DNA of 64,000 bases from Nanobdellota archaeon (GCA_038045265.1 JBBSYL010000010.1:582-64581); one strand, 5' to 3'. Counted from the first letter of the stretch, positions 38,912-56,587 are shown. Made by a program: numbers and translations. The notes: generated by a model from the letters alone, not told the origin.

Positions 38912-39635
38912 GAAATACAATATTATTTTCAGAGTCGAATAGATAAATGGTGTCTCGGTCATTATTCCATATGCTTGTTTTGGAGTTCCAAAATATATCT
39001 GTTCTATTGTCATTTCCGCTTCCTGAGTGCAGATTCACCTCGGAATCTAGAAGAATATTAAACTTATATTGTTTTCTGCTTTCGTCTTTTAATATCCATC
39101 CTGAAAGATTAAATGGATTGCATATATTTTTAATTCTGACCATTTCTTCTTCTTCAGATACTTCAACATTTAAACATCCTGAATAATTTGAACTTTTCCA
39201 TATGCCTTTATTCCATTTAACTGCTTCCTTTTCTGCTTTGTCAAAGGCTTCAAGTTCTGACTCTTCCACAAGGAATTTTGAAGCTAAACCTAAAGAGACA
39301 AGTTCTAAATTAAGATATTTTTCATCTTGGGAATAAAGTCTAGCTAGAGTCCGACCATATTTTTCTATGCCTTGTTTCTCAATATAAATATTTTCCTTTT
39401 CATAAATTTTTAGGTAATTAAGGGATTTTATATAAAGGGGGGAAGATTTTTCCGGGGAATTTATATTTACTAACCTTACAATTCTTCCGTCTTCTAACTC
39501 TAATGTGTCTCCATCTATAACTCTTGCTAAAATAACTGATTCTAACTCTCTTTCAGACTCTGAGAAAATGAAAAAGATATTGGAAATTAATACAGTTAAT
39601 GCTAGAGCTATTAAAAAGGATATTTTCTTATTCAA
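38892..39635 (-). CDS. secreted thermonuclease (SNase-like) fused to a lamin-tail domain
   Basis: RVIDGDTLELEDGRIVRLVNINSPEK...YGRTLARLY (SNase catalytic region). C-terminal NPFNLSGWILKDES LTD-like. N-terminal TM/signal. Confidence 0.75.
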   Translation of the reverse strand: MNKKISFLIALALTVLISNIFFIFSESERELESVILARVIDGDTLELEDGRIVRLVNINSPEKSSPLYIKSLNYLKIYEKENIYIEKQGIEKYGRTLARLYSQDEKYLNLELVSLGLASKFLVEESELEAFDKAEKEAVKWNKGIWKSSNYSGCLNVEVSEEEEMVRIKNICNPFNLSGWILKDESRKQYKFNILLDSEVNLHSGSGNDNRTDIFWNSKTSIWNNDRDTIYLFDSENNIVFHESYGY

Positions 39636-41380: not shown

Positions 41381-41863
41381 ATGAAGAGAAAAGGTTTATC
41401 TCCCGTTATTGCTACTGTCCTCCTTATTGCAATAGTGTTGCTTTTAGCGGCAATCATTTTCTTATGGGCGCGGGGCCTTCTTACTGAAAGAAATCAAAAA
41501 TTTGATGAACCTGTAGAAAATGCATGCGGAGATGTAAACTTCGAAGCTGAAGCATATTTTGATTCTGATAAATACACTTTAGGGGTAGTCAACAAAGGAA
41601 CCGTCCCAATATATAGTATAGAACTTAAAATAAGAAGAGATGGTGCGATAAGAGATCTTAAGGTATTATCTTTGGAAGATGGAAAATATGGTACAATAAG
41701 ATCTGGGGAATCTAAGCTTATAGATTTAGGAAATGAGGGGGATATTGAAGTAGGGGATGAGCTTGAAGTTATACCAATAATACTTGGGCAGAAAGGAGGA
41801 GTCAAAACACCTTTCCCATGTGAATCTGATCAGGGTCAGAGAATTAATATAAAATCAGAGTGA
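41381..41863 (+). CDS. archaeal type IV pilin (class III signal peptide, Pilin_N/DUF361-like)
   Basis: MKRKGLSPVIATVLLIAIVLLL matches the archaeal pilin N-terminal consensus. Confidence 0.7.
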   Translation: MKRKGLSPVIATVLLIAIVLLLAAIIFLWARGLLTERNQKFDEPVENACGDVNFEAEAYFDSDKYTLGVVNKGTVPIYSIELKIRRDGAIRDLKVLSLEDGKYGTIRSGESKLIDLGNEGDIEVGDELEVIPIILGQKGGVKTPFPCESDQGQRINIKSE

Positions 41864-41864
41864 A

Positions 41865-42365
41865 ATGGAAAGAAAAGGATTATCTGCTATTGTTGCAACT
41901 GTTATGATTATAGCTTTGACAGTCGCCGCTGCAGGGATAATAGCTAAATTTGCGATACCTTTTGTCAAAGGAGGCTTAGAAAGTAGTACAGAATGTGTGG
42001 ATTATCAAGAATATTTTAAATTTGATGAATCTCTTGGATTTAACTGTTTTGAACCAGATGAAAACTTAATTCTCTCTGTAAGGGCCAGCAATAATGTGGG
42101 GGGCGATGATAAGATTAAGGGTTTTAATCTTGTTCTATTTGGAGACGGTTTTTCTAAAGTTATTTCTTTAGAGAATAATTTGCAGATAAATGATTTAACA
42201 ATGTACTCTGGAAACGTAATAGAAATTCCTTCTCCTGGAGAAACATTTAGTTATAATTATACCGAAAGAGGAATTTATAATTTTGCAGAATTGTTTCCTG
42301 TATTGAAAACGGGAAAGGTATGCGAAAGAAGGTCTGATAGAATTTCCCTCAGGAGATGCGGATGA
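41865..42365 (+). CDS. archaeal type IV pilin
   Basis: MERKGLSAIVATVMIIALTVAAAG class III signal peptide. Confidence 0.7.
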   Translation: MERKGLSAIVATVMIIALTVAAAGIIAKFAIPFVKGGLESSTECVDYQEYFKFDESLGFNCFEPDENLILSVRASNNVGGDDKIKGFNLVLFGDGFSKVISLENNLQINDLTMYSGNVIEIPSPGETFSYNYTERGIYNFAELFPVLKTGKVCERRSDRISLRRCG

Positions 42366-42907
42366 CGAGAAGAGGGCAGGTTTGGATAGAGACTGTGCTT
42401 TATACTTTGATAGGGCTTGCACTGATTGGAATGGTGTTGGCATTTGCTCTTCCAAAAATAAATCAAACAAGAGATGAAATAATAGTAGATCAGACCATAG
42501 AATCCTTGAAAGAGCTGGATAACTTGATAAATGGTGTTGCTGATCAGGGCCCTGGAAACAGGAGAACGTATGAAATAGGCATCAAAAGAGGTAGCTTAAC
42601 CTTTAATTCTGAAGAAGATATAATTGAATTCAGAATAAAAGACTTGGCGGACCTTTACTCTGAAGAAGGTATAGAAATAGAAAATGGGAGAGTAAAAATA
42701 CTGTCCTCTTCCGGACAAAAGGACAAAGAAATTCTTCTTTCTCTAGACTATGAAAATAAAATAAACATTAGCTATGCTGGAAGAGATGAAATTAAGGAAT
42801 TTAGTGCGGCTCCAATACCATATAAACTTTCTGTAACCAATGAAAGACAAGTTGTCGGAGAGCTCGTTAATATAAATATAGAGGCCATATCTGGAAGCTC
42901 CAATTAA
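42356..42907 (+). CDS. type IV pilin-like protein (bacterial-like RG/QxxxE N-terminus)
   Basis: MRMTRRGQVWIETVLYTLIGLALIG, with Glu at +5 after the putative cleavage site. Confidence 0.6.
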   Translation: MRMTRRGQVWIETVLYTLIGLALIGMVLAFALPKINQTRDEIIVDQTIESLKELDNLINGVADQGPGNRRTYEIGIKRGSLTFNSEEDIIEFRIKDLADLYSEEGIEIENGRVKILSSSGQKDKEILLSLDYENKINISYAGRDEIKEFSAAPIPYKLSVTNERQVVGELVNINIEAISGSSN

Positions 42908-42944
42908 CGGCATAATTTAAATAGATAATTGCATAAACAATGTT

Positions 42945-44471
42945 ATGGACCTTGTCATAAATCTCAAACCTCCCATACCTGCTCTTCCAAGAGTAACAGA
43001 CAAAAGTAAGGTAGATATTAGATATGTTTTGATTGCCCCCTACGCTGTAGCCCATATATATTGGGATGAAAAAACTTCTGAATTAGTTTATGAACTTGAA
43101 GAGCCCTTGCTTAACGAGCCAGAAAAGGCTATACTTGACAAGATTGAAGAAGGAATGCTCGAACTCATAAATGTTAATGTGGCTGTTGAGAAGACTTTAG
43201 AAGCAACAACAAATTATATAGACAAAACTGCAAGGCTTTTGATTGACGAATTTAATATAAAAATGTCTGAAGAGGGCTATCAAAAAATATTTTATTATCT
43301 TTACAGAGATTTTATTGGCTTAAATGAGATAGAACCCATCCTTAATGATTATTATATAGAAGATATAGAATGTAATGGTGTTGGAACAAGTGTGTATGTT
43401 ATACACAGAATATATAGGAATCTAAGAACAAATATACTTTATTCTGATGTAGATAAACTCGCAAATTTTGTTGAGAAGCTTGCGCAAAGGACTGGAAGAT
43501 ATATTTCCTATGCCCAGCCCCTACTAGATGGCAGTCTACCAGATGGAAGTAGAGTCAATGCAAGTTACACAAAAGATGTTACCTCTAAAGGTCCAACTTT
43601 TACAATACGTAAATTTACAAAAGTTCCTTGGACACCAATACAACTTATTGGACTTGGAACTGTGAGTCCCGAGATGCTTGCTTATTTCTGGATACTTCTC
43701 GAATACAAGTCTAGTTTTATGATAACTGGAGGTACTGGAACTGGTAAGACAACATTGCTTAATGCACTTGCCTTCTTCATTCCTCCCGAAGCGAGAGTTG
43801 TTAGTATTGAAGACACAAGAGAAATAAATTTGCCAAGAGAAAACTGGCTTCCAGCAGTTGCAAGACCAAGCATCGGAATAGGAAATGTTGGTGAAGTAGA
43901 TCTTTTCTCCCTATTGAAAAGCTCATTCAGACAGAATCCGGACTATTTAATAGTGGGAGAAGTAAGAGGAAAAGAAGCTTATGTCTTATTCCAAGGAATG
44001 GCTTCTGGTCATGCCTCTTTGAGTACAATGCACGCCGATTCTGTAGAGACATTGATAAGAAGGTTACAAACACCTCCGATAGAACTTCCGCCGAGCCTTG
44101 TTAACACATTAGACTGTGTTGCAGTAATAAGTCATGGATTGGTTAATAATAGGGATATAAGAAAAGTCAGAGAGATTGTTGAAATTATAAATGTAAATAA
44201 TGACGGTACAGCGATGGTTAATACTCCAATGGTTTGGGATCCAGCAAAAAATGTATTTTACTTCAAAAAGCAAAGCAAAGTCTTTGAGAAAATTGCATTA
44301 AAGCATGGAGTAGCACTTGAAAAAATAAGGAGGGAACTTCTTGCAAGAAGTAAACTCCTTTATGAATTATATAGGAATAAAATATTTGATTTTTATGAAG
44401 TAGGAAAAATAATCAATGAGTATTATAAAAATCCTGCAGAGGTCCTTACAAAATACGATATAAAAGAGTAA
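42945..44471 (+). CDS. type IV pilus/secretion ATPase (FlaI/ArlI/TadA/PilB family)
   Basis: Walker A GGTGTGKTTLLNAL. Walker B DYLIVGEVRGKEA. His box GHASLSTMHAD. Confidence 0.85.
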   Translation: MDLVINLKPPIPALPRVTDKSKVDIRYVLIAPYAVAHIYWDEKTSELVYELEEPLLNEPEKAILDKIEEGMLELINVNVAVEKTLEATTNYIDKTARLLIDEFNIKMSEEGYQKIFYYLYRDFIGLNEIEPILNDYYIEDIECNGVGTSVYVIHRIYRNLRTNILYSDVDKLANFVEKLAQRTGRYISYAQPLLDGSLPDGSRVNASYTKDVTSKGPTFTIRKFTKVPWTPIQLIGLGTVSPEMLAYFWILLEYKSSFMITGGTGTGKTTLLNALAFFIPPEARVVSIEDTREINLPRENWLPAVARPSIGIGNVGEVDLFSLLKSSFRQNPDYLIVGEVRGKEAYVLFQGMASGHASLSTMHADSVETLIRRLQTPPIELPPSLVNTLDCVAVISHGLVNNRDIRKVREIVEIINVNNDGTAMVNTPMVWDPAKNVFYFKKQSKVFEKIALKHGVALEKIRRELLARSKLLYELYRNKIFDFYEVGKIINEYYKNPAEVLTKYDIKE

Positions 44472-44513
44472 GGTCTATGAAAACTATATAAATATGGTGT
44501 CTAATTTATATTA

Positions 44514-44675
44514 ATGGAAAAAGAGGATGTAATATCGCTTGCTCACCTCCTGTCTGCTATGAAAGATTCTGCTATAAAGCTTGAAGAAGCGGTGAAAAAG
44601 AAAGATGCTGAAAAAATTACTGAAATAAAAAGAGAAATACTCAGATTTCAAAAAGACGTAGAGAGGGTTATATGA
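44514..44675 (+). CDS. small 53-aa helical protein translationally coupled (ATGA) to the platform gene
   Basis: Hand-translated as MEKEDVISLAHLLSAMKDSAIKLEEAVKKKDAEKITEIKREILRFQKDVERVI. Below the ORF-track size cutoff. Confidence 0.3.
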   Translation: MEKEDVISLAHLLSAMKDSAIKLEEAVKKKDAEKITEIKREILRFQKDVERVI

Positions 44676-45967
44676 TAGAGGAACTTTTGAAAAATATAGA
44701 TAATGAAATAGACATACTTAAGGAAATAGCCTTGTATAATAATAAATTATCTGAAGCGAATCAGCGAGAGAGAAAAATACTTCTTGCGGCAATAAGCTCC
44801 TTGAGAGAAGGAATAAGAATATTAAATGCTTCCGTTCCGAAAATAATGCAGGGTATATCTTTGGCTAAGAAATTGCCTGGAAAACACGAAAGCGGTTTGG
44901 AAAGAATATCTTTTAAGAGAAATGAAAAGGGAATGGATGCTGTCTTAAGAAGCGAAGATAAAGAAAGATTCTTATCTGAACTAAGAATAAATAACGAGGC
45001 GCTGGAAAAGTTGGGGGGAGAAAAACAAGAACAAGAAGTATCTTATGCCAAATTCAAAGGTTCAAACTTTTATCTTAAAGCATCAAATAGAATGTTTGTC
45101 GGACTTGCCAGAAACATGATAAAGCGGGGAAAATTCAAAACACTTGCTACGACCCTTAAAAAATCAAATTTAGACATTTTATTTGAAAGCTATGTTTCTG
45201 CAATTTTCTTTACAACTTTTCTTGCTGTATGCTTTTCGGCCGTACTCTATGTCCTTCTTATATTCTTAGACTTCAGTGTGAGCGCGCCATTTATTCAAAT
45301 ATATTCTGATACACATTTGAAAAGAGTAGGAAGCTTAATATGGGTGCCTTTGATCATTCCAATTCTTTTCTTTCTAGGTTCTTATTTCTACCCTTCAACT
45401 GAGAGGGGGAGTATAGAAAGAAGAATAGATCAAGAGCTCCCATTTGCTGTCGTCCATATGAGCGCAATATCCGGCTCCGGGATAGAACCAACCAGCATCT
45501 TTAAGATAATTGTTCTTGGAAAAGAATATCCTTATCTTAAGAAAGAAGTAAGAAAAATCCTTAATCAAATAAATCTTTATGGTTATGACCTGGTTACCGC
45601 ACTTAACAATGTTGCCAAAAATTCACCAAGCAAGAAACTGTCTGAGTTGCTTTCTGGGATGGCTTCTACAATAACTTCTGGGGGGAGCCTATCTAATTTC
45701 TTTGAAAAAAGAGCTGAAACATTATTGCTTAATTATAGACTCGAAAGAGAAAAATTCACCAAATCTGCTGAAACTTTCATGGACCTCTATATAACTGTGG
45801 TAATCGTAGCGCCCATGATCCTCCTACTTATTTTCATACTTCTCTCGATAAGCGAGTTTGGGCCAAGTATCTCTCCAGGATATATTGCATTTATGATAAT
45901 TGCTATAATCACTTTAATCAATATTATATTCCTTGGAATAATTCATATTAAACAACCTGCATACTAA
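44672..45967 (+). CDS. pilus assembly platform protein (TadC/FlaJ/T2SS-F-like), part 1
   Basis: Cytoplasmic N-domain followed by multiple TM helices. Adjacent to the ATPase. Confidence 0.65.
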   Translation: MIEELLKNIDNEIDILKEIALYNNKLSEANQRERKILLAAISSLREGIRILNASVPKIMQGISLAKKLPGKHESGLERISFKRNEKGMDAVLRSEDKERFLSELRINNEALEKLGGEKQEQEVSYAKFKGSNFYLKASNRMFVGLARNMIKRGKFKTLATTLKKSNLDILFESYVSAIFFTTFLAVCFSAVLYVLLIFLDFSVSAPFIQIYSDTHLKRVGSLIWVPLIIPILFFLGSYFYPSTERGSIERRIDQELPFAVVHMSAISGSGIEPTSIFKIIVLGKEYPYLKKEVRKILNQINLYGYDLVTALNNVAKNSPSKKLSELLSGMASTITSGGSLSNFFEKRAETLLLNYRLEREKFTKSAETFMDLYITVVIVAPMILLLIFILLSISEFGPSISPGYIAFMIIAIITLINIIFLGIIHIKQPAY

Positions 45968-45968
45968 A

Positions 45969-46823
45969 ATGAAAATAAAAAAAGTTCACTGGATAGGAAT
46001 TGGATTCGGCTTAATACTCATAGTCGCAGGTTTAATCTTTTTTCTTAGTAATGAAGAAAAAAACTTGCTATTCTTTATAATCGGATTGGGAATAACTGTA
46101 GGAATACTTCCATTTATTGTGGATGTAATTGTTCAAAACAAGAAAGCGCAGGAGATAAATGAAATGTTTCTTGAATTTTCTAGAAATCTCGCTGAAAGTG
46201 TTGCAACAGGGACACCTATAAGTAAGAGCATAATTAATTTGAGTAGAAGGAATTATGGCCCTCTAACAGAACACATAGAAAAGTTGGGCAATCAAATTTC
46301 ACTTGGAATTCCTCTAAGTAAAGCTTTATTTATTTTTGCAAGAGATGTAGATAATAATGTTATAAGTAGAGCAGTCTCCCTTATGAGTGAAGCAGAAAAG
46401 GCAGGCGGAGAGATTGCCGCGATATTAAATTCTGTTTCTCTATCTATAGCCGAGATAGAAAAGTTGAAGAGTGAAAGAAAAGCAGCCATATCTGGCCTAA
46501 TAGTTCAAGGATATATAATATTCTTTATATTTATTGGCATAATGCTTATAATGGAATTTAAAATTTTGCCTTTAGCTTTGCAGATAGATACGTTGAGCGG
46601 ATTAAGCCATGGATCTGTAAGTGCTACCGCATCGCCAGGTCAAGGCAATGCAGGGGAATCACTGCCCAATCTGTTTCTCTATCTATTGCTTGTTCAGGGA
46701 TTCTTTACAGGATTTGCAATAGGGAAACTGGCCGAGGGTTCTTTAAAGGCGGGAATAAAGCATTCTTTCATAATGATCGTATCTGCTCTGCTTATTTCTA
46801 CGGGAGTCAGGGCATTTATTTAG
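45969..46823 (+). CDS. pilus assembly platform protein (TadB/FlaJ/T2SS-F-like), part 2
   Basis: N-terminal TM, soluble helical domain, C-terminal TMs. The platform appears split into two genes. Confidence 0.55.
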   Translation: MKIKKVHWIGIGFGLILIVAGLIFFLSNEEKNLLFFIIGLGITVGILPFIVDVIVQNKKAQEINEMFLEFSRNLAESVATGTPISKSIINLSRRNYGPLTEHIEKLGNQISLGIPLSKALFIFARDVDNNVISRAVSLMSEAEKAGGEIAAILNSVSLSIAEIEKLKSERKAAISGLIVQGYIIFFIFIGIMLIMEFKILPLALQIDTLSGLSHGSVSATASPGQGNAGESLPNLFLYLLLVQGFFTGFAIGKLAEGSLKAGIKHSFIMIVSALLISTGVRAFI

Positions 46824-47571
46824 TTACAAGGTAAAATAACTCATTATCCGATCTAAAAATTTTAAACTTGTATTCGAGTCTTGAAAGCATTTTTTCAAAC
46901 CAAGTCCTGTTTGGAAACTCCATCTTTTTACCCGAGATCTTTCTTGTTGGGAAACTAACTAGGATAAATTTGCACTTTACAATTTTTATTATTTTTTCAG
47001 CAAGTTTATGGCCTTTCTTTTCTATTATATCTAAAACCTTAAAGATTAAAACCAAATCTACTGTGGGCAAGGAATTATCTATTTTTCTTAAGTCGTATAT
47101 AAATGTTTTTCCTCTTATTTTATTTTCTTCGAAAAAGGAAGATACTAAAGAAAGATCTGAACTATTTATATCGGAGGCATAATATTGTATTTCTGGTTTT
47201 GCTAGTGCGATAGGATTGAGTCCACATCCCAGATCAAGTATAGAAGAAATCTGCAGGGAGTCAATTATCTTTTTAAGTTCTGGATAGAAATTGGCCCTTT
47301 CTGATGTAGAAAGGTGGTTCTTAAGAATATTGTCCTTGTTTCCAGATATGTCTGAAGATTTCCTGAATCTTCCAATATAACTCCTAAGATTATGTCTTAT
47401 CTCTTTTATGAGGACCTTTTTGTCTTTCTGGTTTAAATCTTCAAAATTTATTTTTTTGTTCTGCATAGATTCTGTAAGTAAGACCCTTACAAAATCTGAA
47501 TCTGCTCCAGATAACTCTTTCTTTTTCTTTATTTCAAAAATAAATTCATCAATTTTATCCATGCTTTTCAT
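46816..47571 (-). CDS. FmrO/ArmA-family 16S rRNA (guanine-N7) methyltransferase homolog
   Basis: HLSTSERANFY...SSILDLGCGLNPIAL...VDLVLIFKVL...LVSFPTRKISGKKMEF aligns with the ArmA/RmtB pattern (H.ST.ER ... SSILDFGCGFNPLAL ... FPIKSLSGKEKG), compared with ArmA as recalled from memory. Confidence 0.55.
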   Translation of the reverse strand: MKSMDKIDEFIFEIKKKKELSGADSDFVRVLLTESMQNKKINFEDLNQKDKKVLIKEIRHNLRSYIGRFRKSSDISGNKDNILKNHLSTSERANFYPELKKIIDSLQISSILDLGCGLNPIALAKPEIQYYASDINSSDLSLVSSFFEENKIRGKTFIYDLRKIDNSLPTVDLVLIFKVLDIIEKKGHKLAEKIIKIVKCKFILVSFPTRKISGKKMEFPNRTWFEKMLSRLEYKFKIFRSDNELFYLVTK

Positions 47572-47621
47572 TTAATAAATAGCATGAGAAGTTATATAAA
47601 TTTACTATTCCAGAGTCTTCC

Positions 47622-48317
47622 ATGAAAAGGAGAGGTTTAGCTCATTTAGAAATAGTACTTGCATTTGTTCTATTTATTGGAGTTATAGGATTTGGATTTT
47701 ATTTTCTTGGACACAGCAATAAAGTAAATTTAGTTGAGAAAAATTTAGATTATATCGAGAGAGAGATAAAAAAAGACCTTACGTCTGAAGCTTCAGCACA
47801 AAGTTTAAAGATCAATACAAGAACGGGAAATTCATTTGCTGTTGAGCTAACCAAGGAAAGTGGAGAGAATTTTGCAGTAGAAAATTCCTCAGGAGATGTG
47901 ATAAATTCGAAATTTGACAATGGGATTTTATATTTTGATGCACAAAGCGGAGATATTTATACAATAAGAAAAAGCTTAGATATAAATGAGATAAATGATT
48001 TTTCAGGGAGTCTACCTGCACATGATGAAAATAATTACAAGCTCGGGCCAGAAATAGAATCAAGTGTATATTCTGAAGAAAAAGCTCTTGGACTTAATGA
48101 AAGCTATTATAATAATTATGGAACTCTTCTTGAGAGATATGGTATAGGAAACAGGGTCAATTTTGGATTTCAAATAATTTTTGAGGGAGATGGAAGAATA
48201 ACTGCTGAAAGCGAAGTGCCTGAAAGTTATGAAATATTTTTAAGAAGTGAGAGGGCCGAATTTTTAAGAAGCGGGGGAGAATTGGAATTTGCGGAGGTAA
48301 TAGTTAAGGTATGGTAA
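47622..48317 (+). CDS. type IV pilin-like protein
   Basis: MKRRGLAHLEIVLAFVLFIGVIG (RG, then Glu at +5). Confidence 0.55.
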   Translation: MKRRGLAHLEIVLAFVLFIGVIGFGFYFLGHSNKVNLVEKNLDYIEREIKKDLTSEASAQSLKINTRTGNSFAVELTKESGENFAVENSSGDVINSKFDNGILYFDAQSGDIYTIRKSLDINEINDFSGSLPAHDENNYKLGPEIESSVYSEEKALGLNESYYNNYGTLLERYGIGNRVNFGFQIIFEGDGRITAESEVPESYEIFLRSERAEFLRSGGELEFAEVIVKVW

Positions 48318-48721
48318 ATAAAAGAGGACTGCTTAGAATAATTGAAGTCATGATAGCCTCCCTTATAATTATCTCTTCTGTGCTTATCGTAGTTACAAAT
48401 AGAGACATAGGAAAAAGAGAAAATTTATGCTCTGAAATTCCAAATCTCTTAGAAGAGCTAGGTAAAAACAGAGATATAAGAGAGCAGATATTAACTGACG
48501 ACGCAAGCGGAGCTAATAGCTTCCTAAGAGAGAGGATAAATAATCCTGCCTACTTATTTGAATTTAAGATATGCGAAGTTGATGATATTTGTACTAGCAA
48601 TCAAGTAACTGCACAAGATTCAAATGTATGCGCTGGAGAGAGGATTATAAGTGCAAATGCCCAACAACAAAGTGGGTTTAATCCCAAGAAAGTAAAATTA
48701 TTTCTCTTTAAATACGGATAA
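48311..48721 (+). CDS. type IV pilin-like protein
   Basis: MVNKRGLLRIIEVMIASLIIISSVLIVV. Confidence 0.55.
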   Translation: MVNKRGLLRIIEVMIASLIIISSVLIVVTNRDIGKRENLCSEIPNLLEELGKNRDIREQILTDDASGANSFLRERINNPAYLFEFKICEVDDICTSNQVTAQDSNVCAGERIISANAQQQSGFNPKKVKLFLFKYG

Positions 48722-48753
48722 ATACTAACAATCTTTATAAAGTTCTTTAGTGT

Positions 48754-51700
48754 TTGAGAGATATGAAAAAGGCGAAGAGATTAATTAGATATTTTATTGT
48801 TATTATTGCTATTTTTTCTTTCTTATTTTCTATTAATTTTGTTGGTGCAGTTACTGCTGGAGATATATTAATTGTTGGGTATTCTGGAGGTTCAGGGCAA
48901 ATTGAGGGACTTACAAAAGTTGTGGATGGACAATATACTTATACTGTTCCTGCTGGAGTTACTCAAATTAAGGTTCAGCTCTGGGGGGCGGGCGGTGGAG
49001 GAGGGGCGGGAGGAACTGGGAGCTTAGGAAGTAGTGGAAATCTTGAGGGCGGAGGTGGAGGCGCATATGGCGAAGTTATTTTAGATGTTTCTAGTTCACA
49101 AACATATAATGTAGCTGTTGGAGCTGGAGGGAATGGTGTAGGATATAACTTACAAACTCCCCCTACTTCAGGAGGCAATTCTGTTTTTGGAACATATTAT
49201 GCAAATGGTGGGAGTGCTGGCGCTGTTATACCTAATGGTTGGAATTCGCATCCCGGAGGAACCGGAAGCGGAGGAACATTCAATACTCCTATTGGAACGA
49301 ATGGGGGGAGTGGTGGCTCGATAGGGGCGGTAAATGGTTGTGGTAGTGGAGGAGCAGGAGGCGTAGCTCCTGGAGGGAATGGAGCTCAAGCTGGCCCAAG
49401 TGCGGGGGCTGGTGGAGGAGCTTCTGGAGGAGGTGCGGAATATGCAGGGAATGGGGGAGCGGGAGGCAATTGCGTACTCGCACAAAGTGGTCAGAACATC
49501 CCAGGAGGGAATGGATTTTTGTATGGAGGTGGAGGAGGAAGTAGTGGAGTGACTACTCTTGCTGTAGGAAATGGAGGGAAGGGTGCAGAAGGACAGGTGA
49601 AAATAACTTATCTTTCTGTTGGGAGCCAAGGAAGTCAAACAGTTCAACCTACTTCCGGTTTGTGCGTACCTAATCAAACAATTATTTCATTATATCAAGA
49701 AAGCAATTCTCATGGAGCGATTTATAACCAAACATTCAATGATGTAAATGCTGGAATTGGTGTATGTTATGATAAAATTTTTGGATTCAATTATACTGGA
49801 GATACAAATCCTCAAAGATGTGGAGCCGAGAATGCAAATTCTGTTGTTAAAGTGATTAGCAAGAATAATGCACATGTAGAAGATAAATCTTTGAATAATT
49901 ATCCATATAGTTTATGCTATGGTGATTTGAATTGTAAACTTGAAGATAAAACATACACCCCATCTGCAAATGAGAGAGCAGTACTTTACTTATCATCCAA
50001 TACAAACGCACATGTATCTAGCACGGCAGGATATGATTTTATTGTTTATTGCACAAGCAACAATGGGCCTGTGCCTGGAACTGGAGAAATTATTTCTGCA
50101 GAATGGAAAGATGAATTTGAAAATAATTTGGCAGTGGATGAAAATGGAAATAATAAAAGCAATGTAAATTCTACCGTAAAATTAGTTGCTAAAACTACTT
50201 TTATAAATACTGAAATTACATTTGATATAAAAGAAGAAGATACTGGCTTACCTGATGCAAATATAAGAACTGGAGCAATAGCATTGAAAGCGACTACAAA
50301 TGGTGAGGGAATTGCTTCTATAAGCTGGCTCATAAATGACACTGACATGACTAAAGCAGGAGTAGGGCCTGCAGAATTTTATTTCACTGCAAGCGTGTTT
50401 GAAGAGAGTAAACAGAGCGGTATTTTGCTGACAAGCAAAACTCCTACGCCTCCTGAAAAAGAAATTGAAATTGAGATAGCTGGAATAAAAGATAAGGGGT
50501 TGTACTTTACAGGAGTGCCTGTTGAGATAAGTTATGTGCTTAGAAAGCCTAGTCAGGGAAGAGGATTAGAGTTAACCTGGAAAATAATTGAAGACAATTA
50601 TGAAAGTGATGATTTGACTTTCGATTATACTTTCCAAAATCCTGGGCAGAAGACAATTCATCTTACTGCAACAAATTCTTTTGGAGGAAGAGCAGAAAGG
50701 CAGGTAAGTGTCCTTGCAATAGGAGATAATGGTATATTTGCATTTATAGATAATCCGAGATTTAATGAAGTTTTGCCTGTAAGCAGTGACAATGTAAGAG
50801 TATTATATAATGCAAGCGGGAGCTACGTCGTAAATAGTACATATGATAAAACTCAATGTTTAGACATTTTGGCAAGAGGAAGATTAGTCTGTCTTGCCGG
50901 AAGATGCCCTAACGCTGTTGGAAACCCTCCAGCTGGATGCAGTGCACTAGTTGAAGAGAATAATAAAGGATATGAAAATCTTAATTTCACTTGGACAAGA
51001 TATGGAAAAAGTTCAATAAATACCTTTTCAAGATTTGGTTTGAAGCAGGATTACACCATATTTGGAAACAGCGAGTATTCTAATAAATTAAATGACAGAG
51101 CGTTTAAACTTGTCCTTAATTATACCAACGAGAGTGAAGATTTAAGTCTTCAACAGGAATTTATGAGAAATTATACTATTGGGCAATGCATCAATGATGG
51201 AAGGGGATTTGTTAAAATAGATAGTAAAGGAAATGTACTGAAAGTATTGGAAACAACTAACAAGAATAGTGGGGATTTTGACCCTAATGCGTGCAGGGCA
51301 GTTAGTGGAATAGTCTGCTGTCCAACAGGACATTTATGTGGAGCAAATGGATGTTATATTCCTGCTTCTACACCAGATATAGTAGAAGACTTGCCTGGAT
51401 GCTCAAGATATAGAACAGAACTGGCGTGTCTTGACGCTGTAGAAACAACTAATGCCTGCAGTGATGGAGGTTTGACTGCCGCTACCTCATGTCAATGGGT
51501 TGAGCAAACAGGAGGAAGTGGAGAATGCAAGGAGTATACTAGTATAATTGAGACGAGCAATGGGGCGGTGGCAGGAACATGCGTACAAGGCGTGAGAAAT
51601 CTTACCTCATGTGTTAATGGATTCAATAAGATAAAAATAGACACCACGTATACTGGAGGAAGTAATCCTGCAAATAGTTGTTTAAGTGAGGATGACTGCA

Positions 51701-51855
51701 AGAATAAAGCTGGAGAATTTACAGTACCATGTGGAAGGCCTGCGTTTGAATTGCCTTTCTTTGGAATAGAGCAACTATTAAGTGCACTTCTGATAATAGC
51801 TATAATCTATTCAATTTTAATTAAGACTAGATATATACCTAAAAAGAGAAAATAA
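48754..51855 (+). CDS. giant (1033 aa) cell-surface protein with ~300-aa glycine-rich domain, Cys-rich modules and C-terminal TM anchor
   Basis: N-terminal hydrophobic segment. VQLWGAGGGGGAGG...GGGGGAYGE poly-Gly blocks. Many paired Cys. C-terminal LLSALLIIAIIYSILIKTRYIPKKRK. Confidence 0.6.
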   Translation: MRDMKKAKRLIRYFIVIIAIFSFLFSINFVGAVTAGDILIVGYSGGSGQIEGLTKVVDGQYTYTVPAGVTQIKVQLWGAGGGGGAGGTGSLGSSGNLEGGGGGAYGEVILDVSSSQTYNVAVGAGGNGVGYNLQTPPTSGGNSVFGTYYANGGSAGAVIPNGWNSHPGGTGSGGTFNTPIGTNGGSGGSIGAVNGCGSGGAGGVAPGGNGAQAGPSAGAGGGASGGGAEYAGNGGAGGNCVLAQSGQNIPGGNGFLYGGGGGSSGVTTLAVGNGGKGAEGQVKITYLSVGSQGSQTVQPTSGLCVPNQTIISLYQESNSHGAIYNQTFNDVNAGIGVCYDKIFGFNYTGDTNPQRCGAENANSVVKVISKNNAHVEDKSLNNYPYSLCYGDLNCKLEDKTYTPSANERAVLYLSSNTNAHVSSTAGYDFIVYCTSNNGPVPGTGEIISAEWKDEFENNLAVDENGNNKSNVNSTVKLVAKTTFINTEITFDIKEEDTGLPDANIRTGAIALKATTNGEGIASISWLINDTDMTKAGVGPAEFYFTASVFEESKQSGILLTSKTPTPPEKEIEIEIAGIKDKGLYFTGVPVEISYVLRKPSQGRGLELTWKIIEDNYESDDLTFDYTFQNPGQKTIHLTATNSFGGRAERQVSVLAIGDNGIFAFIDNPRFNEVLPVSSDNVRVLYNASGSYVVNSTYDKTQCLDILARGRLVCLAGRCPNAVGNPPAGCSALVEENNKGYENLNFTWTRYGKSSINTFSRFGLKQDYTIFGNSEYSNKLNDRAFKLVLNYTNESEDLSLQQEFMRNYTIGQCINDGRGFVKIDSKGNVLKVLETTNKNSGDFDPNACRAVSGIVCCPTGHLCGANGCYIPASTPDIVEDLPGCSRYRTELACLDAVETTNACSDGGLTAATSCQWVEQTGGSGECKEYTSIIETSNGAVAGTCVQGVRNLTSCVNGFNKIKIDTTYTGGSNPANSCLSEDDCKNKAGEFTVPCGRPAFELPFFGIEQLLSALLIIAIIYSILIKTRYIPKKRK

Positions 51856-51898
51856 AATCGGGCGGTATATTTTTAAAATACCTTTCACTTGGGAATGT

Positions 51899-54571
51899 AT
51901 GAGAAGAGGTTTGATTTTGTTGTCCCTTGTAATTGTGGCGATATTATTGATAAGCCCCGCATTAGCTAATGTAAAGATTCAGTCTGAAAATCTTAAAAGA
52001 TTATACTCTGGAGGAGATACCATCACAGGTATAATCAAAGTGAACATTACAAATGAGCCTGCAAACAATCAGGTTGTAACTAATTTTAAGGGGAATATAA
52101 CTTTAATAGAGCTCATAAGAGCAAATAATCTTGCTGAAGGAATCAATTATAATTGTAGTATCTATGGATGCAATGCAGGTTATGAAGACGAGGGGAGTGT
52201 CAATACACTCTCTGTTGATTCTTCTTCTGCTGAATTTGTAGGCTTCAAACTTAATAGAGCAGATAGAATTGATAGTTTAGATGTGGTAATTTCAAGCGAC
52301 TCTGGCCCTTCGTGTTCCCCCCAGTTAAGTATTGATGTACTTGGAAAAGAAGAGTATAGATTACATAATACTAATTACACGAGTGAGAGGTGCGGTTCTA
52401 AGAATTACGGATGCTTTGATCTTTCAAGAGCAGACAAAAAAGTTGAAATAGGCTCTGAGGGAGTATGTGAGCAAATGGAATTGTGGCCAGCTCCAGCTTA
52501 TGAGATCAGTGCAAAAATTACAAACAGCACAGGCACTACTGGAATAATAAAAGCTGAACTACTTGATGAGCAAGGAGGAGTTTATGGGGCTGTTGGAGAG
52601 TGTGAAATGCCTCTACAAAAAGAAAGCGTTGAAGAACTAAAATGTACAATAGGCAATCCAATCATGGAGCGAAAAAATTATACAGTATGTATTTCAGCAA
52701 GCGGAGGAAACTATAAGATAAATGCTGAAGACTCTGGAAGAATATGCGGTTCTGCTAGGACAAATCTAGGATTTGGATTCAGCTTTGATTATGAAGTATC
52801 TGCACAGGCATTAGAATATGATGAAGTAAATTTTTCCTTAAACGATGCGTTCGGAAGAGCTTATGGCGGGCTGGAGATTGGGCAAATTGCAGACGATTAT
52901 TTGAATGAAATCTATGGAGGAAATTGTTCTGATGGATGTTATATTCCTCTTTTAATAACAAGCAACTTGGACCAAAATATAGACTTTTCAAGACCTAAAG
53001 CTGAGTACTTTTTCCAAGGCAACAAATTAAGTGAAGAGACATTTTATTCTCTTGAAAAGAAAGATGCTGTAATAAATGCAAAAAATATGGAGCTCGATTT
53101 GGAAAAGGCCGAATTTACAATACCTCTTAACTCAAGTGAAAATAAATTAAGAATATTTGTTGGGGGAAGCAAGATCTATAATGATATAGCAATAAACATA
53201 ACTAAGGGTTTTGATTTTGACATAATCCCTAAGTTTGCTTTGATAGGCATACAAACTGAATATTCTATTCTTACAAATGACAATATAAGTAAAACAGAAT
53301 GGAAGTTTGGAAATTCTGCTGTAAAACAAAGCAATGGAAAAAGCATTACAAATAGAATAGATGAAGGGGGTGAATATACTCTTGAAGTAAAGGCGACAAA
53401 TACTCGCGGAGCTGTAAGTATTAAAAACATTAAAGTAATTGTTGGGGATCCTGAGGAATCTTTAAAACAATTGATAAATCAATCAGAAACAGGAATAAAA
53501 AAGATAGAAGAATATCTAAATACGCTTCCTCAATGGGCAAAGAGCAAGATATCTGAAAAAATTGAACTTGAAAAACTAAAAAGCGAAGTGATTACCGTGA
53601 AAAATGTTGACAATGCAGGAGATGAAAACAAGACTATTGCATTAATAGATAGAATTAGCGCTTTAAATATTCCAATTTCCATAAAAGAATCTGATAAGGG
53701 TAGTTTGCCATTAGCTTTAGGATTCTCAAATATAAATACAAAATATATAGAAAAAATCTCTGCCTCTGAAATATCTGATGCACAGAGAGAAGAATTTACT
53801 AATAATCTCCTTTTCTGGATAGATGAAAATTATGCTCCCTTAGTAGAGTTTAAAGTTATAGAAAAAAATACTGCCTCCGGGCCGGAACCATTAGTTACAC
53901 AAATTTCAGTTACTCTGAATAAGAAGAAAGAAGAGCTAAGTGAGTCTTATTTGATTATAGATTATCCAATTGAAAATATTTATTTTGCTGAAGATTATGG
54001 TGCTATCGAAATAGTATCTGACGAAACAAGCACAGGCACTTACATTCTTGCAAATGAGGAAAATAAAATAGAGTTTATGGTAAGTGGAAAAGTTGAATTC
54101 TCTGAGCTCGGAATGTATATCTCTCCAGTTGTTAGCGATATTGGGAGTTATGCAAATATTGATTTTGAAAAAAAGCAATTCCCTGCTGGTCTTTTAACCT
54201 TCTGGGTTGCTATATTAATTATATGTGCGCTTGTTGTTTATATAATACTTCAAGAATGGTATAAGAGGCATTATGAAAATTACCTCTTTAGAAATAAAGA
54301 TGATCTATATAATTTGATGAATTTTATATATAATACTAGAAAAGGAAGCATAACTGAACAGGAGATGAAGAAAAAGCTTCTAAGCAATGGGTGGAGTGGA
54401 GAACAGATCTCATATACTGCCAAGAAACTTGATGGGAAAAGAACAGGGATGTTTGAAATACCTATTTTCAGGTTCTTTGAACAGAAAAAAATAAAAGAAG
54501 AAATGGAAAAGAGACAGAATATAGGAAATAGAAGCGGAAGATTTATTAAAAGACCGAATTTAGGTGTATAA
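51899..54571 (+). CDS. large (890 aa) surface protein with RRG-type N-terminus, Ig/PKD-like repeats, C-terminal TM and ~110-aa cytoplasmic tail
   Basis: MRRGLILLSLVIVAILLISPALA. C-terminal TM WVAILIICALVVYIIL followed by a charged tail. Stop overlaps the GTPase start. Confidence 0.6.
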   Translation: MRRGLILLSLVIVAILLISPALANVKIQSENLKRLYSGGDTITGIIKVNITNEPANNQVVTNFKGNITLIELIRANNLAEGINYNCSIYGCNAGYEDEGSVNTLSVDSSSAEFVGFKLNRADRIDSLDVVISSDSGPSCSPQLSIDVLGKEEYRLHNTNYTSERCGSKNYGCFDLSRADKKVEIGSEGVCEQMELWPAPAYEISAKITNSTGTTGIIKAELLDEQGGVYGAVGECEMPLQKESVEELKCTIGNPIMERKNYTVCISASGGNYKINAEDSGRICGSARTNLGFGFSFDYEVSAQALEYDEVNFSLNDAFGRAYGGLEIGQIADDYLNEIYGGNCSDGCYIPLLITSNLDQNIDFSRPKAEYFFQGNKLSEETFYSLEKKDAVINAKNMELDLEKAEFTIPLNSSENKLRIFVGGSKIYNDIAINITKGFDFDIIPKFALIGIQTEYSILTNDNISKTEWKFGNSAVKQSNGKSITNRIDEGGEYTLEVKATNTRGAVSIKNIKVIVGDPEESLKQLINQSETGIKKIEEYLNTLPQWAKSKISEKIELEKLKSEVITVKNVDNAGDENKTIALIDRISALNIPISIKESDKGSLPLALGFSNINTKYIEKISASEISDAQREEFTNNLLFWIDENYAPLVEFKVIEKNTASGPEPLVTQISVTLNKKKEELSESYLIIDYPIENIYFAEDYGAIEIVSDETSTGTYILANEENKIEFMVSGKVEFSELGMYISPVVSDIGSYANIDFEKKQFPAGLLTFWVAILIICALVVYIILQEWYKRHYENYLFRNKDDLYNLMNFIYNTRKGSITEQEMKKKLLSNGWSGEQISYTAKKLDGKRTGMFEIPIFRFFEQKKIKEEMEKRQNIGNRSGRFIKRPNLGV

Positions 54572-55209
54572 TGTTAAGGATTATAAAAAAGTTTTCTAAA
54601 AGAATACTTGCAACTCTTTTTGGAAGAAAAGATAACATAAAAATAGGTTTTTATGGTCCTCCTAATGCTGGGAAGACTAGTTTAGCAAATAAAATATGTA
54701 AAGACTGGACTGGGGAAGAGATAGGAGTAGTAAGTAAAATACCTCACGAGACAAGGCATGTGCAGTTTAAGGAAAAAGTAGAGATAAAACATAAGGGGAA
54801 AGTGCTTATGTTCAAAATGGTCGATACTCCTGGAATAGCCACTAAGATAGACTATGAGGAATTTATAAAATTCGGAGTTAAGAAGAAAGATGCTAAGAAA
54901 AGAGCTAAGGAAGCAACTCAGGGAATTATAGAGTCAATACAGTGGCTTGATGATATGGATGCAGTTATAGTAGTTATTGATGCTTCTGAAAATCCTTACT
55001 CGCAAGTGAATATTACAATAATAGGAAATCTTGTTGCAAGAAAAATTCCTCTCCTGATAGTTGCAAATAAAATAGATTTGAAGAAAGCGAATATGAAGAA
55101 AGTTGAAAATGCATTTCCAGAATATGAGGTTGTGGGAATAAGTGCAAAAGAAGGAATTAACATGGATGATTTTTACGAAGCCTTATTCAGGCTGGCAAAA
55201 AAAGCATAA
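54571..55209 (+). CDS. small Ras-like GTPase
   Basis: G1 GPPNAGKTS, G3 DTPG, G4 ANKID. Confidence 0.75.
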   Translation: MLRIIKKFSKRILATLFGRKDNIKIGFYGPPNAGKTSLANKICKDWTGEEIGVVSKIPHETRHVQFKEKVEIKHKGKVLMFKMVDTPGIATKIDYEEFIKFGVKKKDAKKRAKEATQGIIESIQWLDDMDAVIVVIDASENPYSQVNITIIGNLVARKIPLLIVANKIDLKKANMKKVENAFPEYEVVGISAKEGINMDDFYEALFRLAKKA

Positions 55210-55210
55210 A

Positions 55211-55603
55211 ATGATAAAAAAGAGCAAGTTTAAAGGATTAAGCCTGCATGTAATACCCTATTCTGAAATTCGAGACTTGAGTATAGGGGAGAGAGTGAAG
55301 AAAGTTTTGAAACTTATTTTGGGGAGCAGAATAGTTATAATTCAAGGAAGATTAAGGCCAGAAGAAGAAGCAAGATTGATAGAGGATACTATGGCTATGG
55401 TCGAACATATTAAAAATTTTAAAGGAATAGAATTGGCAGTCATAGAACCTAATATGAAAGAGGAAAATTTACTTATAAGAATGAAGCATGGACTTGCTAA
55501 GAGGCTTGTTGGAGAAAGTAGCGCCCTTACAATAATAGGCCCTAGCTCTCTAGTCAAAGAAATAAAGAAAGATCCAAAAAAAATGGAAGTATTACTTGGT
55601 TAA
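55211..55603 (+). CDS. DUF2073-like protein (GTPase partner)
   Basis: Start adjusted to the ATG just after the GTPase stop. Family assignment is from recollection of the conserved archaeal GTPase/DUF2073/Zn-ribbon trio. Confidence 0.35.
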   Translation: MIKKSKFKGLSLHVIPYSEIRDLSIGERVKKVLKLILGSRIVIIQGRLRPEEEARLIEDTMAMVEHIKNFKGIELAVIEPNMKEENLLIRMKHGLAKRLVGESSALTIIGPSSLVKEIKKDPKKMEVLLG

Positions 55604-56167
55604 TTAACTTCCATTTTTGTGTAAAGGAAAATCTTTTGTTTCTATCTGAAAGTTATCATTTTTATGAATTTTAAATATTACTTTAAAATCTTCAGATTTG
55701 CTTATCTTTGTAAAAAGATAAAGTATTTTAGTGATACATGCCATGGAAAATTTTGAATAAGGCTTTGAATCTAGCTCATCCTTAATCTTTTTTATCTCTT
55801 CTGAAAAACCCTCCTCCCAATTTATTATAGCTTTATTCATTACTCCGATAAGATAATTCTCATCTAGATCTAATTTATGAGCTAACTCGTCTCGGACATC
55901 GTTTAAAGCCTTTAGTGTTTTAAATTCTGTATCACTAATTAAACTTTGTTCTTCTAGATATTTTAATCTGTTCATATGCTCTTTAAATTTTTTATTTTTT
56001 GAATATCCGTAATTAATATTAAATAATTTTAAGGAAATATACTCAGCATAAATTGCTAATAAAAGAATTACTTCTCTCCCAAAGTAAGATAAATTTAGTG
56101 TATTTATATCAGCGATTAGGCTATGAATCTTGTGTAGATCTGTCTCTTCTTCCATATAAAAAGACAA
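55604..56167 (-). CDS. hypothetical helical protein with R-x4-H motif (possible HEPN-like)
   Basis: 187 aa. RDELAH seen mid-protein. Opposite strand, inserted between the DUF2073-like and Zn-ribbon genes. Confidence 0.35.
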   Translation of the reverse strand: MSFYMEEETDLHKIHSLIADINTLNLSYFGREVILLLAIYAEYISLKLFNINYGYSKNKKFKEHMNRLKYLEEQSLISDTEFKTLKALNDVRDELAHKLDLDENYLIGVMNKAIINWEEGFSEEIKKIKDELDSKPYSKFSMACITKILYLFTKISKSEDFKVIFKIHKNDNFQIETKDFPLHKNGS

Positions 56168-56206
56168 TAATTAGCTTATATAAATCTTTATTAACCTTTT
56201 AACTTA

Positions 56207-56587
56207 TTGAAGTTTATGCCCTATAGATGTGTTCATTGCAATAAAATTTTTGAAGATGGCTCTGATGAGGTGCTTAATGGATGTTCTAGTTGTCACAGCA
56301 AGTTTTTCTTTTATATAAAAAAGGAAAAGCTACCCGAAATACTTAAGAGTGGTATTGCGGAGATGGAACTTAGCTCGAATGAAAAGGATCAAATAGAAAA
56401 GGATGTAAGAGAAATCACAGGCATAGAAAATGAAGAAACCCCAGTATTTCTTGACTTTGAAAGTGTTAAAATAGTTAAGCCTGGAAAGTACTTGATAGAC
56501 ATATCTAAGCTTTTCTCTTTTGATAAACCTCGAGTGTATAAGCTAGAAGATGGAAAGTATATTGTAGATTTAAATGTGGGAAATTAA
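56207..56587 (+). CDS. Zn-ribbon protein (DUF2072-like)
   Basis: N-terminal CVHCNK...CSSCHSKF Cys4 ribbon. 126 aa. Confidence 0.5.
   Translation: MKFMPYRCVHCNKIFEDGSDEVLNGCSSCHSKFFFYIKKEKLPEILKSGIAEMELSSNEKDQIEKDVREITGIENEETPVFLDFESVKIVKPGKYLIDISKLFSFDKPRVYKLEDGKYIVDLNVGN

Follow-up and report, generated by a model that had tools for sequence, protein, structure and literature searches.

A split-platform type IV pilus, a surface-protein pair and an ArvABC GTPase system as three probably separate, juxtaposed modules in a groundwater DPANN archaeon

Positions 41,381 to 56,587 of the DNA analysed here (64,000 nucleotides of a Nanobdellota archaeon, GCA_038045265.1 JBBSYL010000010.1:582-64581, referred to below as the window) encode a type IV pilus-like machine, two large membrane-anchored proteins of 1030 and 890 aa, and a small GTPase whose start codon overlaps the stop codon of the 890-aa gene (Table 1). 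Judging from gene content, conservation and position, we consider it probable that these genes represent three juxtaposed modules, namely a type IV pilus with a split platform, two anchored surface proteins that form a pair, and an ArvAB/ArvC system transcribed on its own. The pilus and the GTPase module both belong to kinds that are already known: the former is a type IV filament (TFF) system of the ordinary archaeal sort, and the GTPase together with OapB and OapC is the ArvABC (OapABC) module, which has been described before and is widespread in archaea. New here are the recognition of the module as ArvABC, the predicted promoters of arvA and arvC, the predicted promoter-encoded C-terminal peptide of the upstream surface protein, and a surface-protein family of about 1,000 clusters with an uncharacterised cytoplasmic domain. 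A preceding sequence-only reading of this DNA, all of whose open reading frames (ORFs) were found where it had placed them, had recognised the type IV pilus-like locus by its ATPase, platform and class III (prepilin-type) N-termini, all of which are present; its view of the GTPase as an unrecognised module attached to a surface protein was not supported, as the OapB and OapC genes that follow identify the known ArvABC.

The source contig, 72.7 kb long, stems from a Hainich groundwater metagenome and is labelled Nanoarchaeota, and the same proteins occur in a metagenome-assembled genome (MAG) at NCBI with the same label. Relatives were found by a pattern scan covering one genome per GTDB species, for which the query alignment consisted of the 890-aa protein and two homologues. 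The scan returned 57 related loci (numbered with the prefix L below), nearly all with a full-length homologue of the 890-aa protein (28-39% identity). Two of them come from MAGs named simply as archaea, and the MAGs of all others bear the label Pacearchaeota, Woesearchaeota or Nanoarchaeota. The organism is a tiny groundwater archaeon of the Pacearchaeota type, and the DPANN origin suspected earlier is supported by the contig label as well as by the Pacearchaeota and Woesearchaeota MAGs among its relatives. Gene order in the relatives was read by tblastn of all window proteins against the 57 loci. The order runs from thioredoxin reductase through pilins 1, 2 and 3, the ATPase, a 53-aa protein and platform halves A and B to an FmrO-type methyltransferase gene on the opposite strand, and continues with pilin-like genes 4 and 5, a variable slot, the 890-aa gene, the GTPase, OapB, OapC and the CCA-adding enzyme; it recurs in 57 species-level genomes, far above chance. 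Pilus genes lie upstream in 29 of the 34 loci for which 8 kb or more of sequence on that side was available, and none was seen within about 9-10 kb upstream in the other five (L004, L010, L020, L021 and L040). At L010:1932-7219 and L020:5655-9957 the stretch from thioredoxin reductase to the surface proteins lacks the ATPase/platform block; two other pilin-like genes stand in its place, together with ORFs that are putatively Mre11 and Rad50 by N-terminal likeness.

The core of the pilus machine was identified at the family level. The ATPase matches T2SSE with 110.6 bits (cut-off 24.9), its nearest solved structures are Archaeoglobus GspE (afGspE, 2OAP, 5e-111), FlaI (4e-84) and the Tad ATPase CpaF (1e-44), which supports the earlier assignment to the FlaI/TadA type, and it is 64-76% identical to the copies in the relatives. 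The suggestion that the platform protein is split was likewise correct: the two halves score 59 and 63 bits against T2SSF (cut-off 25.2), and when aligned to the FlaJ/ArlJ profile of 555 positions the 431-aa protein covers positions 36-248 and the 284-aa protein 265-536, jointly 36-536. As the former corresponds to the first half of FlaJ and the latter to the second, the platform is truly divided between two genes. Between ATPase and platform lies a gene missing from the earlier gene list, whose 53-aa product has no match in Pfam and is found at the same position in more than 25 relatives with 40-51% identity. The 16S rRNA methyltransferase-like FmrO gene overlaps the end of the second platform gene from the opposite strand and is located between platform and pilin-like gene 4 in 28 of 29 relatives; since it and a 187-aa ORF further downstream lie on the minus strand, the locus is not a single co-directional block. 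In L017 (291-3266) the pilus ATPase carries an in-frame insertion of about 1.4 kb with the hallmarks of an intein (SIED/S...HN/T, slashes marking its borders).

The five proposed class III N-termini are supported by motif conservation, as each combines a [KR]-G motif with a hydrophobic helix of about 20 residues that is retained in 9 to 35 orthologues. The orthologue consensus sequences, with the cleavage site assumed to follow the conserved Gly and shown as a slash, are K/R-G/LSPVIATVLL for pilin 1 (conserved in 10 orthologues), KKG/xSxVVA for pilin 2, [KR]G/QVWIET for pilin 3, [KR]G/xSHIE for pilin-like protein 4 and [KR]G/WLRIVE for pilin-like protein 5. Pilin 3 combines Gln at +1 with Glu at +5, both invariant in 10 orthologues, as in Epd/DUF361-type archaeal pilins, although no match to Class_IIIsignal or DUF361 was obtained at E<=0.1. 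Three proteins had been credited with Glu at +5; counted from the assumed cleavage site, this applies to pilin 3 (RG/QVWIE) and pilin-like protein 4 (RG/LAHLE), while in pilin-like protein 5 (RG/LLRIIE) the Glu stands at +6; each of the three Glu positions is without variation in 10-35 orthologues. Pilins 1 and 2 are Pilin_N/UpsA-like, and solely pilin 1 exceeds curated thresholds, with an additional arch_flag_Nterm score of 41 bits and a partial UpsA match; pilin 2 reaches 17.6 bits against Pilin_N, below the cut-off. Thus, the proposed profile searches corroborated the T2SSE and both T2SSF assignments, and the Pilin_N assignment for one pilin candidate out of five. As pilins 2 to 5 lack a family match above threshold, their status as pilins is based on the conserved [KR]-G motif and the hydrophobic helix.

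According to published work, a divided platform in combination with varied pilins is the hallmark of the Epd pilus (archaeal TFF system 1), and two-gene platforms have been described both for this system and for some DPANN loci of subsystem 4A (bioRxiv 10.64898/2026.04.22.720090). The present locus resembles the Epd pilus of Methanococcus maripaludis and DPANN 4A in its FlaI/GspE ATPase, its two single-T2SSF platform genes, its several class III proteins, one of them with Gln at +1 and Glu at +5, and the large adhesin-like proteins nearby. It differs from them in that no prepilin peptidase was found in the locus or the window, in that two of its pilins are Pilin_N/UpsA-like rather than Epd-like, and in the rRNA-methyltransferase-like gene lying inside the locus on the other strand. 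A PilY-like adhesin belongs to 4A; the top PDB structural matches of the 890-aa protein do not include PilY1 or a beta-propeller. With the bacterial Tad system and its TadA/TadB/TadC proteins it shares a CpaF/TadA-related ATPase (1e-44), a platform divided into two proteins of one domain each, and pilins some of which have Glu at +5. In contrast to Tad, the locus has neither TadZ nor a secretin, a short pilin of the Flp type or any other Tad part, its ATPase resembles archaeal GspE/FlaI far more than CpaF, and the organism is an archaeon. One groundwater study states that type IV pili are missing from DPANN. We propose that the ATPase, the 53-aa protein, the two half-platforms, the three upstream pilins and the two downstream Glu-bearing pilin-like proteins would form one filament machine, which would presumably build an adhesive pilus once a prepilin peptidase encoded elsewhere has cleaved its subunits.

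At the other end of the locus, the GTPase was assigned as ArvA because OapB and OapC are encoded downstream, in the arrangement described for this module (PMC10927574). It is a small TRAFAC GTPase with matches to MMR_HSR1 (3e-16, 60 bits), small_GTP (56.7 bits) and Arf (2.6e-6, 27.5 bits, cut-off 22.3). The earlier label of a Ras-like protein is not supported, since the Ras score of 17.8 bits falls below the cut-off of 21.6 and MMR_HSR1 is the best match. Its N-terminus MLRIIKKFSKRILATLFGRK, as read from the sequence, is a putative amphipathic helix. The protein is 71-87% identical in the relatives, and more than 8000 homologues were found in the database, all of at least 80% identity among the best 120 listed. 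The arvB gene starts 2 nt past the arvA stop codon; relatives align from about residue 24 of the longer ORF, and ArvB is present in all 56 relatives with downstream sequence. ArvC, whose orthologues begin with MPYKC, is the second gene downstream of the GTPase; the 187-aa ORF between arvB and arvC has no match in any of the 57 related loci, which makes it specific to this genome, and would be a recent insertion by which the arv genes were split here. In L013 (7713-9743) the arvA gene carries an in-frame insertion of about 1.4 kb with intein hallmarks within the P-loop (GK/C...HN/T).

The name ArvABC for OapABC goes back to Mills et al. 2024 (PMC10927574), who showed in Haloferax volcanii that deletion of arvA or arvB abolishes extracellular vesicles, while deletion of arvC raises them. 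The same study counted 1,666 ArvA homologues, including Nanoarchaeota, with ArvB directly downstream in 93% of the genomes, in a neighbourhood analysis that covered downstream genes only, and flagged ArvABC in DPANN as an open question. The module described here resembles that of Haloferax in its small single-domain GTPase with an N-terminal helix, in the position of OapB as the next gene, and in an OapC zinc ribbon within two genes. In contrast to Haloferax, arvC appears as a separate unit with its own predicted promoter, split from arvB by a minus-strand ORF, and the module is not visibly near an origin or cdc6, being preceded instead by a surface-protein gene that holds the predicted arvA promoter. 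By likeness to Haloferax volcanii, ArvABC may also serve vesiculation in DPANN archaea.

The prediction of transcription units is based on the distribution of TATA-like octamers upstream of 58 window genes. Within 60 nt upstream of these genes, 26 of 41 matches begin at -28 to -31 (14 at -29, six at -30, four at -28 and two at -31), at least one in 19 genes, and they are rare elsewhere; this distance from the ATG suggests the geometry expected for mostly leaderless mRNAs. Such boxes precede pilin 1, the ATPase, FmrO, pilin-like gene 4, the 1030-aa gene, the 890-aa gene, arvA and arvC (examples start at 41352, 42916, 47592, 48734, 51870, 54542 and 56187), and none was found before pilins 2 and 3, platform halves A and B, pilin-like gene 5 or arvB. 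Pilin 1 and pilin-like gene 4 are accordingly positioned as predicted heads of transcription units, and each block of the locus begins with its own TATA-like box about 29 nt before the ATG, with arvA and arvC sharing the box TTTATTAA.

The 12-mer AGATTTATTAAA of the predicted arvA promoter has a single exact copy in the window, and a near-invariant element, gcaAGATTTATTAAAag, is located within 70 nt upstream of arvA in the relatives. In 46 of 54 loci TTTATTAA has its first T at -29 or -30 relative to the arvA ATG; for the range of -29 to -32 the count rises to 50. The same octamer is found at -29 of arvC in 46 related loci. Before the 890-aa gene a different element was seen: judged by eye, about 20 of 49 relatives have a tatatTTTTTAAA-like sequence at the same distance as here. 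By conservation and position, arvA-arvB and arvC would thus be separate transcription units that share a promoter type.

This bears directly on the junction between the surface protein and the GTPase. The stop codon of the 890-aa gene does run into the GTPase gene, as had been noted, with a one-base overlap (TAATG, 54569-54573), and the predicted arvA promoter lies within the last codons of the 890-aa ORF, where it reads R-F-I-K. Across the relatives TTTATTAA is in frame as R-F-I-K in 38 loci, in another frame in one, across the stop codon in five (the protein then ending GKIY) and outside the ORF in eight; these eight include L038 and L040, in which 356 nt and 4.3 kb, respectively, separate arvA from the 890-aa gene. 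In 50 orthologues the R-F-I-K codons are unrelaxed at third positions (conservation 0.83-0.96, and 0.91-0.96 for F-I-K), like first and second positions. As the octamer is retained in any frame or outside the ORF and its third codon positions are unrelaxed, the C-terminal RFIK/ARFIKRP peptide is best explained as translated promoter, and for the same reasons we rejected the idea that ARFIKRP is a sorting or partner-binding peptide. With a conserved predicted promoter of its own before arvA, the TAATG overlap is that of an ORF crossing the promoter of the next gene and by itself provides no evidence of coupling. The coupling of surface protein and GTPase proposed in the sequence-only reading from the stop/start overlap is therefore not upheld, and translational coupling or an operon as the cause of the overlap was rejected. 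We suggest that the 890-aa reading frame just continues through the arvA promoter, and that this would produce both the C-terminal peptide and the overlap, the latter probably reflecting genome compaction.

Between pilus and GTPase genes lie the two large TM-anchored proteins of the earlier description, both of which indeed carry a Sec signal and a C-terminal transmembrane (TM) anchor and are most likely cell-envelope or adhesion proteins. The first, given before as a Gly-rich protein of 1033 aa, exists and is anchored; its Gly_rich_2 match (2e-13) covers residues 58-286 alone (1033-aa numbering), the remainder being Cys-rich with a weak PKD match, and its most likely start is ATG 48763, giving 1030 aa, according to the call on the source contig and the TATA-like box at -29. 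Relatives align only to residues 300-1033 or so, and the N-terminal Gly_rich_2 domain is a lineage-specific addition; four weak database relatives, two of them with a T9SS sorting domain, gave no indication of its origin. Across the relatives the slot that separates pilin-like gene 5 from the 890-aa gene is 62 nt long in the shortest case and 9.4 kb in the longest. As a rule it encodes a single Cys-rich protein (20-70 Cys) of 340-1250 aa with a Sec signal, ending in a (P)FFG-TM-basic anchor; this protein is missing in three loci (L014, L029 and L041). Such variability would suit a distal, fast-changing recognition surface. In nine relatives (L019, L033, L034, L038, L042, L050, L053, L055 and L058) an ORF of about 472 aa with a conserved C-terminus, longer in L055, stands between the pilin-like pair and the Cys-rich protein; we take it to be the RNA ligase RtcB. 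L034 has an integrase-like ORF in addition.

The second protein, of 890 aa, combines beta-sandwich domains including PKD (about 24-516), a mixed helical/beta region (518-743), a TM segment (about 763-785) and a cytoplasmic helical domain (786-876), beyond which the chain is predicted to be disordered. An AlphaFold2 model built on a 124-sequence alignment (pLDDT 92, pTM 0.71) places the helical cytoplasmic domain at about 800-877. Foldseek searches with this model returned only generic Ig-like arrays (macroglobulin domains, the SraP adhesin, a phage tail tip, S-layer proteins), with TM-scores below 0.25 except for the PKD domain, to which the good local matches are confined, so that an assignment of the whole protein to a fold was rejected in favour of generic beta-sandwich arrays plus PKD; among the top 50 listed PDB matches there was no PilY1 or beta-propeller adhesin. 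We also considered the protein as a sixth class III protein (MRRG/LILL...) and rejected this, as the Gly is often absent from orthologues, in which the hydrophobic region ends in a Sec cleavage site of the AxA type. The best conserved region is the cytoplasmic tail domain (786-876); in the tail outside the R-F-I-K codons, conservation at codon positions 1, 2 and 3 (0.78, 0.82 and 0.56 in 50 orthologues) indicates selection at the protein level. Clustered at 50% identity, the tail family found by an exhaustive profile search amounts to about 984 clusters. In the 150 best matches the domain is always at the C-terminal end, mostly comprising the last residues, and nearly all of the proteins are about 865-940 aa long, the shorter ones probably being fragments. 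The surface pair would thus consist of a variable Cys-rich protein with a Gly-rich tip domain and a conserved 890-aa protein with a helical cytoplasmic domain of about 90 residues.

A possible, though in our view less likely, interpretation is that the two proteins are not pilus adhesins but envelope proteins of the S-layer type, with a conserved membrane-anchored base (the 890-aa protein) and a variable outer partner following a SlaB/SlaA-like logic, which would share no more than their position with the pilus genes and arvABC on either side. The single copy per recovered locus at a fixed position behind a near-consensus promoter would fit such a role, as would beta-sandwich arrays with a TM anchor and the S-layer proteins among the Ig-like arrays returned by Foldseek, even though those structural matches are generic, with the low scores given above, and neither protein matches any S-layer family. 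The pair persists where no pilus genes are near, and unrelated genes, such as the putative RtcB gene of nine loci, can part it from the pilin-like genes; on the other hand, the variable partner is dispensed with in L014, L029 and L041.

Returning to the reading as three modules, several observations weigh against it. The 890-aa/arvA pair is the single most conserved adjacency of the locus (less than 400 nt apart in 55 of 56 loci, the exception being L040 with a 4.4-kb insertion), and the 890-aa gene still abuts arvA in L004, L010, L020 and L021 despite the absence of pilus genes, L040 again being the exception; the surface-protein pair is tied less to the pilus core than to arvA. The strong conservation of the tail implies a conserved cytoplasmic partner. 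No run of at least five T was found between the 890-aa gene and arvA in the window, so that co-transcription by read-through is possible, and the promoters are themselves predictions from conservation and position. On the pilus side, pilins 3, 4 and 5 have no curated family match in Pfam or NCBIfam, and no class III signal peptidase of the Peptidase_A24 family (PibD/FlaK/EppA) was found among the 58 ORFs scanned in the 64-kb window (all non-overlapped ORFs of at least 150 aa and three shorter ones), to which the search was confined; of the features of a TFF system, the signal peptidase is hence the one not seen there. The sole intramembrane aspartyl protease in the window, a presenilin-type signal-peptide peptidase (PF06550, 58998-59915, minus strand), does not belong to Peptidase_A24.

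Some of these observations would be accounted for by an integrated apparatus, in which the 890-aa protein serves ArvABC as a receptor in the membrane or as a cargo partner, its tail recruiting or being regulated by the GTPase, and in which surface adhesion or pilus contact is linked to vesicle formation or membrane remodelling at the host interface. Besides the adjacency, with gaps of mostly 5-30 nt, its persistence in the four loci without pilus genes about 9-10 kb upstream, the protein-level selection on the tail and the lack of an obvious T-run terminator, such a link would suit the finding that ArvA-type GTPases act at membranes and that ArvB has no membrane anchor of its own (PMC10927574). 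Nevertheless, we regard it as unlikely. The predicted arvA promoter is kept even where arvA lies apart from the 890-aa gene (L038 and L040), and it is of the type shared with arvC and not of the type preceding the 890-aa gene. In haloarchaea ArvABC adjoins the replication origin and works there with no such surface-protein partner described (PMC10927574). The tail has no recognisable GTPase-binding fold, and its family is known in one architecture, from a sub-clade of the ArvA-bearing archaea. Furthermore, unrelated neighbours are equally syntenic: the CCA-adding enzyme follows arvC in 40 of 47 loci, and FmrO is kept in the proportion given above. Accordingly, the check proposed earlier, co-conservation of the giant proteins and the GTPase with the pilus genes, came out positive for the adjacency and yet does not discriminate, as conservation within the clade cannot establish function where unrelated neighbours are retained to a similar extent. 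A promoter embedded in the upstream ORF may alone make the 890-aa/arvA junction hard to break. A more specific version, that the 890-aa protein is a clade-specific membrane partner of ArvABC whose tail docks ArvA or the anchor-less ArvB beneath an adhesive ectodomain and so focuses budding at the site of host contact, is a conjecture to which we give little credence; if true, it would represent the first cargo- or receptor-like partner of an archaeal Arf-like vesiculation GTPase.

The remaining genes of the window (a ribosomal protein cluster, SecY, exosome, proteasome, PCNA and primase) are those of an ordinary archaeal chromosome with a GC content of 32-38%, and Rfam and tRNA scans of the 64-kb window gave no match. 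A 512-aa protein (32973-34511, plus strand) has an N-terminal match to the small primase subunit of 30 bits, just above the cut-off, and a sub-threshold C-terminal match to the large subunit, and may be a fused PriS-PriL primase; PCNA is encoded divergently at 32101-32829, where the GC skew changes sign. Two adjacent proteins with F5/8 type C (discoidin, galactose-binding-like) domains (3543-5352, minus strand) and a nuclease with a staphylococcal-nuclease and a lamin-tail domain (38892-39635, minus strand) are further candidate surface or scavenging proteins. Two proteins with Sec-type signal peptides and no informative family match, of 734 aa (29015-31219, minus strand) and 619 aa (34531-36390, plus strand), are further uncharacterised exported proteins of this small genome.

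Table 1. Features of the locus in window coordinates; slashes mark the assumed cleavage site after Gly.
Feature	Position	Strand	Evidence and remarks
Pilin candidate 1, 160 aa, KRKG/LSPVIATVLL	41381..41863	+	Pilin_N 29.1 bits (cut-off 25.2); predicted TATA-like box at -29
Pilin candidate 2, 166 aa, ERKG/LSAIVATV, no Glu at +5	41865..42365	+	Motif conserved in 9 orthologues
Pilin candidate 3, 181 aa from ATG 42362, RRG/QVWIET	42362..42907	+	Start as called on source contig
Pilus assembly ATPase, 508 aa, FlaI/GspE/TadA family	42945..44471	+	T2SSE 8.8e-32; own TATA-like box at -29
Small conserved protein, 53 aa, charged/helical, between ATPase and platform	44514..44675	+	Called on source contig
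Platform first half (A), 431 aa, N-terminal cytoplasmic region of about 210 aa and one T2SSF domain	44672..45967	+	T2SSF 4.8e-16, residues 262-387
Platform second half (B), 284 aa, one T2SSF domain	45969..46823	+	T2SSF 4.6e-17
FmrO-type (rRNA) methyltransferase, conserved passenger, no pilus part	46816..47571	-	FmrO 2.9e-15
Pilin-like protein 4, 231 aa, KRRG/LAHLE	47622..48317	+	Glu at +5 invariant in about 35 orthologues; TATA-like box at -30
Pilin-like protein 5, 136 aa, NKRG/LLRIIE	48311..48721	+	Glu invariant at +6; overlaps end of pilin-like gene 4; no TATA of its own
Variable surface protein, 1030 aa from ATG 48763	48763..51855	+	Sec signal, Gly_rich_2, Cys-rich body, C-terminal PFFG-TM-basic anchor
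Predicted promoter of 890-aa gene, TATATTTTTAAA	51866..51877	+	First T of TTTTTAAA at -29; single exact occurrence in window
Conserved type I membrane surface protein, 890 aa	51899..54571	+	Sec signal 1-23, beta-sandwich chain, TM, cytoplasmic helical domain
Cytoplasmic tail domain of 890-aa protein, residues 786-876	54254..54526	+	Motifs WYKRxYE, DLYNLINFIYN, GWxGEQ, DGKRTGMxEIP
Predicted arvA promoter, AGATTTATTAAA	54539..54550	+	TATA TTTATTAA from -29; inside last codons R-F-I-K of 890-aa ORF
ArvA/OapA small GTPase, 212 aa	54571..55209	+	N-terminal basic-hydrophobic helix; G1 GPPNAGKTS
ArvB/OapB, 130 aa from ATG 55211	55211..55603	+	PF09846 OapB 1.8e-14, 54 bits (cut-off 27)
ORF of 187 aa between arvB and arvC, not a module member	55604..56167	-	Sub-threshold DUF4145 match only
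Predicted arvC promoter, TATA TTTATTAA	56187..56194	+	-29 from ATG 56216; same box as before arvA
ArvC/OapC zinc-ribbon protein, 123 aa from ATG 56216	56216..56587	+	PF09845 OapC 4.1e-22, 79 bits (cut-off 23)

Pacearchaeota are among the most reduced and most strongly host-attached DPANN archaea. For the present organism we infer the roles of the surface proteins, the function of the pilus and vesiculation, and a role of the locus in host attachment is plausible. The occurrence of the pilus locus in the same order across more than 50 species means that the filaments and the two envelope proteins are core equipment of the clade, and the locus names concrete candidates for host attachment. With a box at -28 to -31 as the rule, transcription units of this genome can be predicted in a simple manner. 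The chief practical lesson is one of caution, as in compact genomes with leaderless mRNAs a gene overlap or a conserved C-terminal peptide can be the footprint of the next promoter rather than a sign of coupling. Finally, the predicted arvA and arvC promoters, together with the neighbouring cytoplasmic tail, provide a defined starting point for the study of ArvABC in DPANN archaea.

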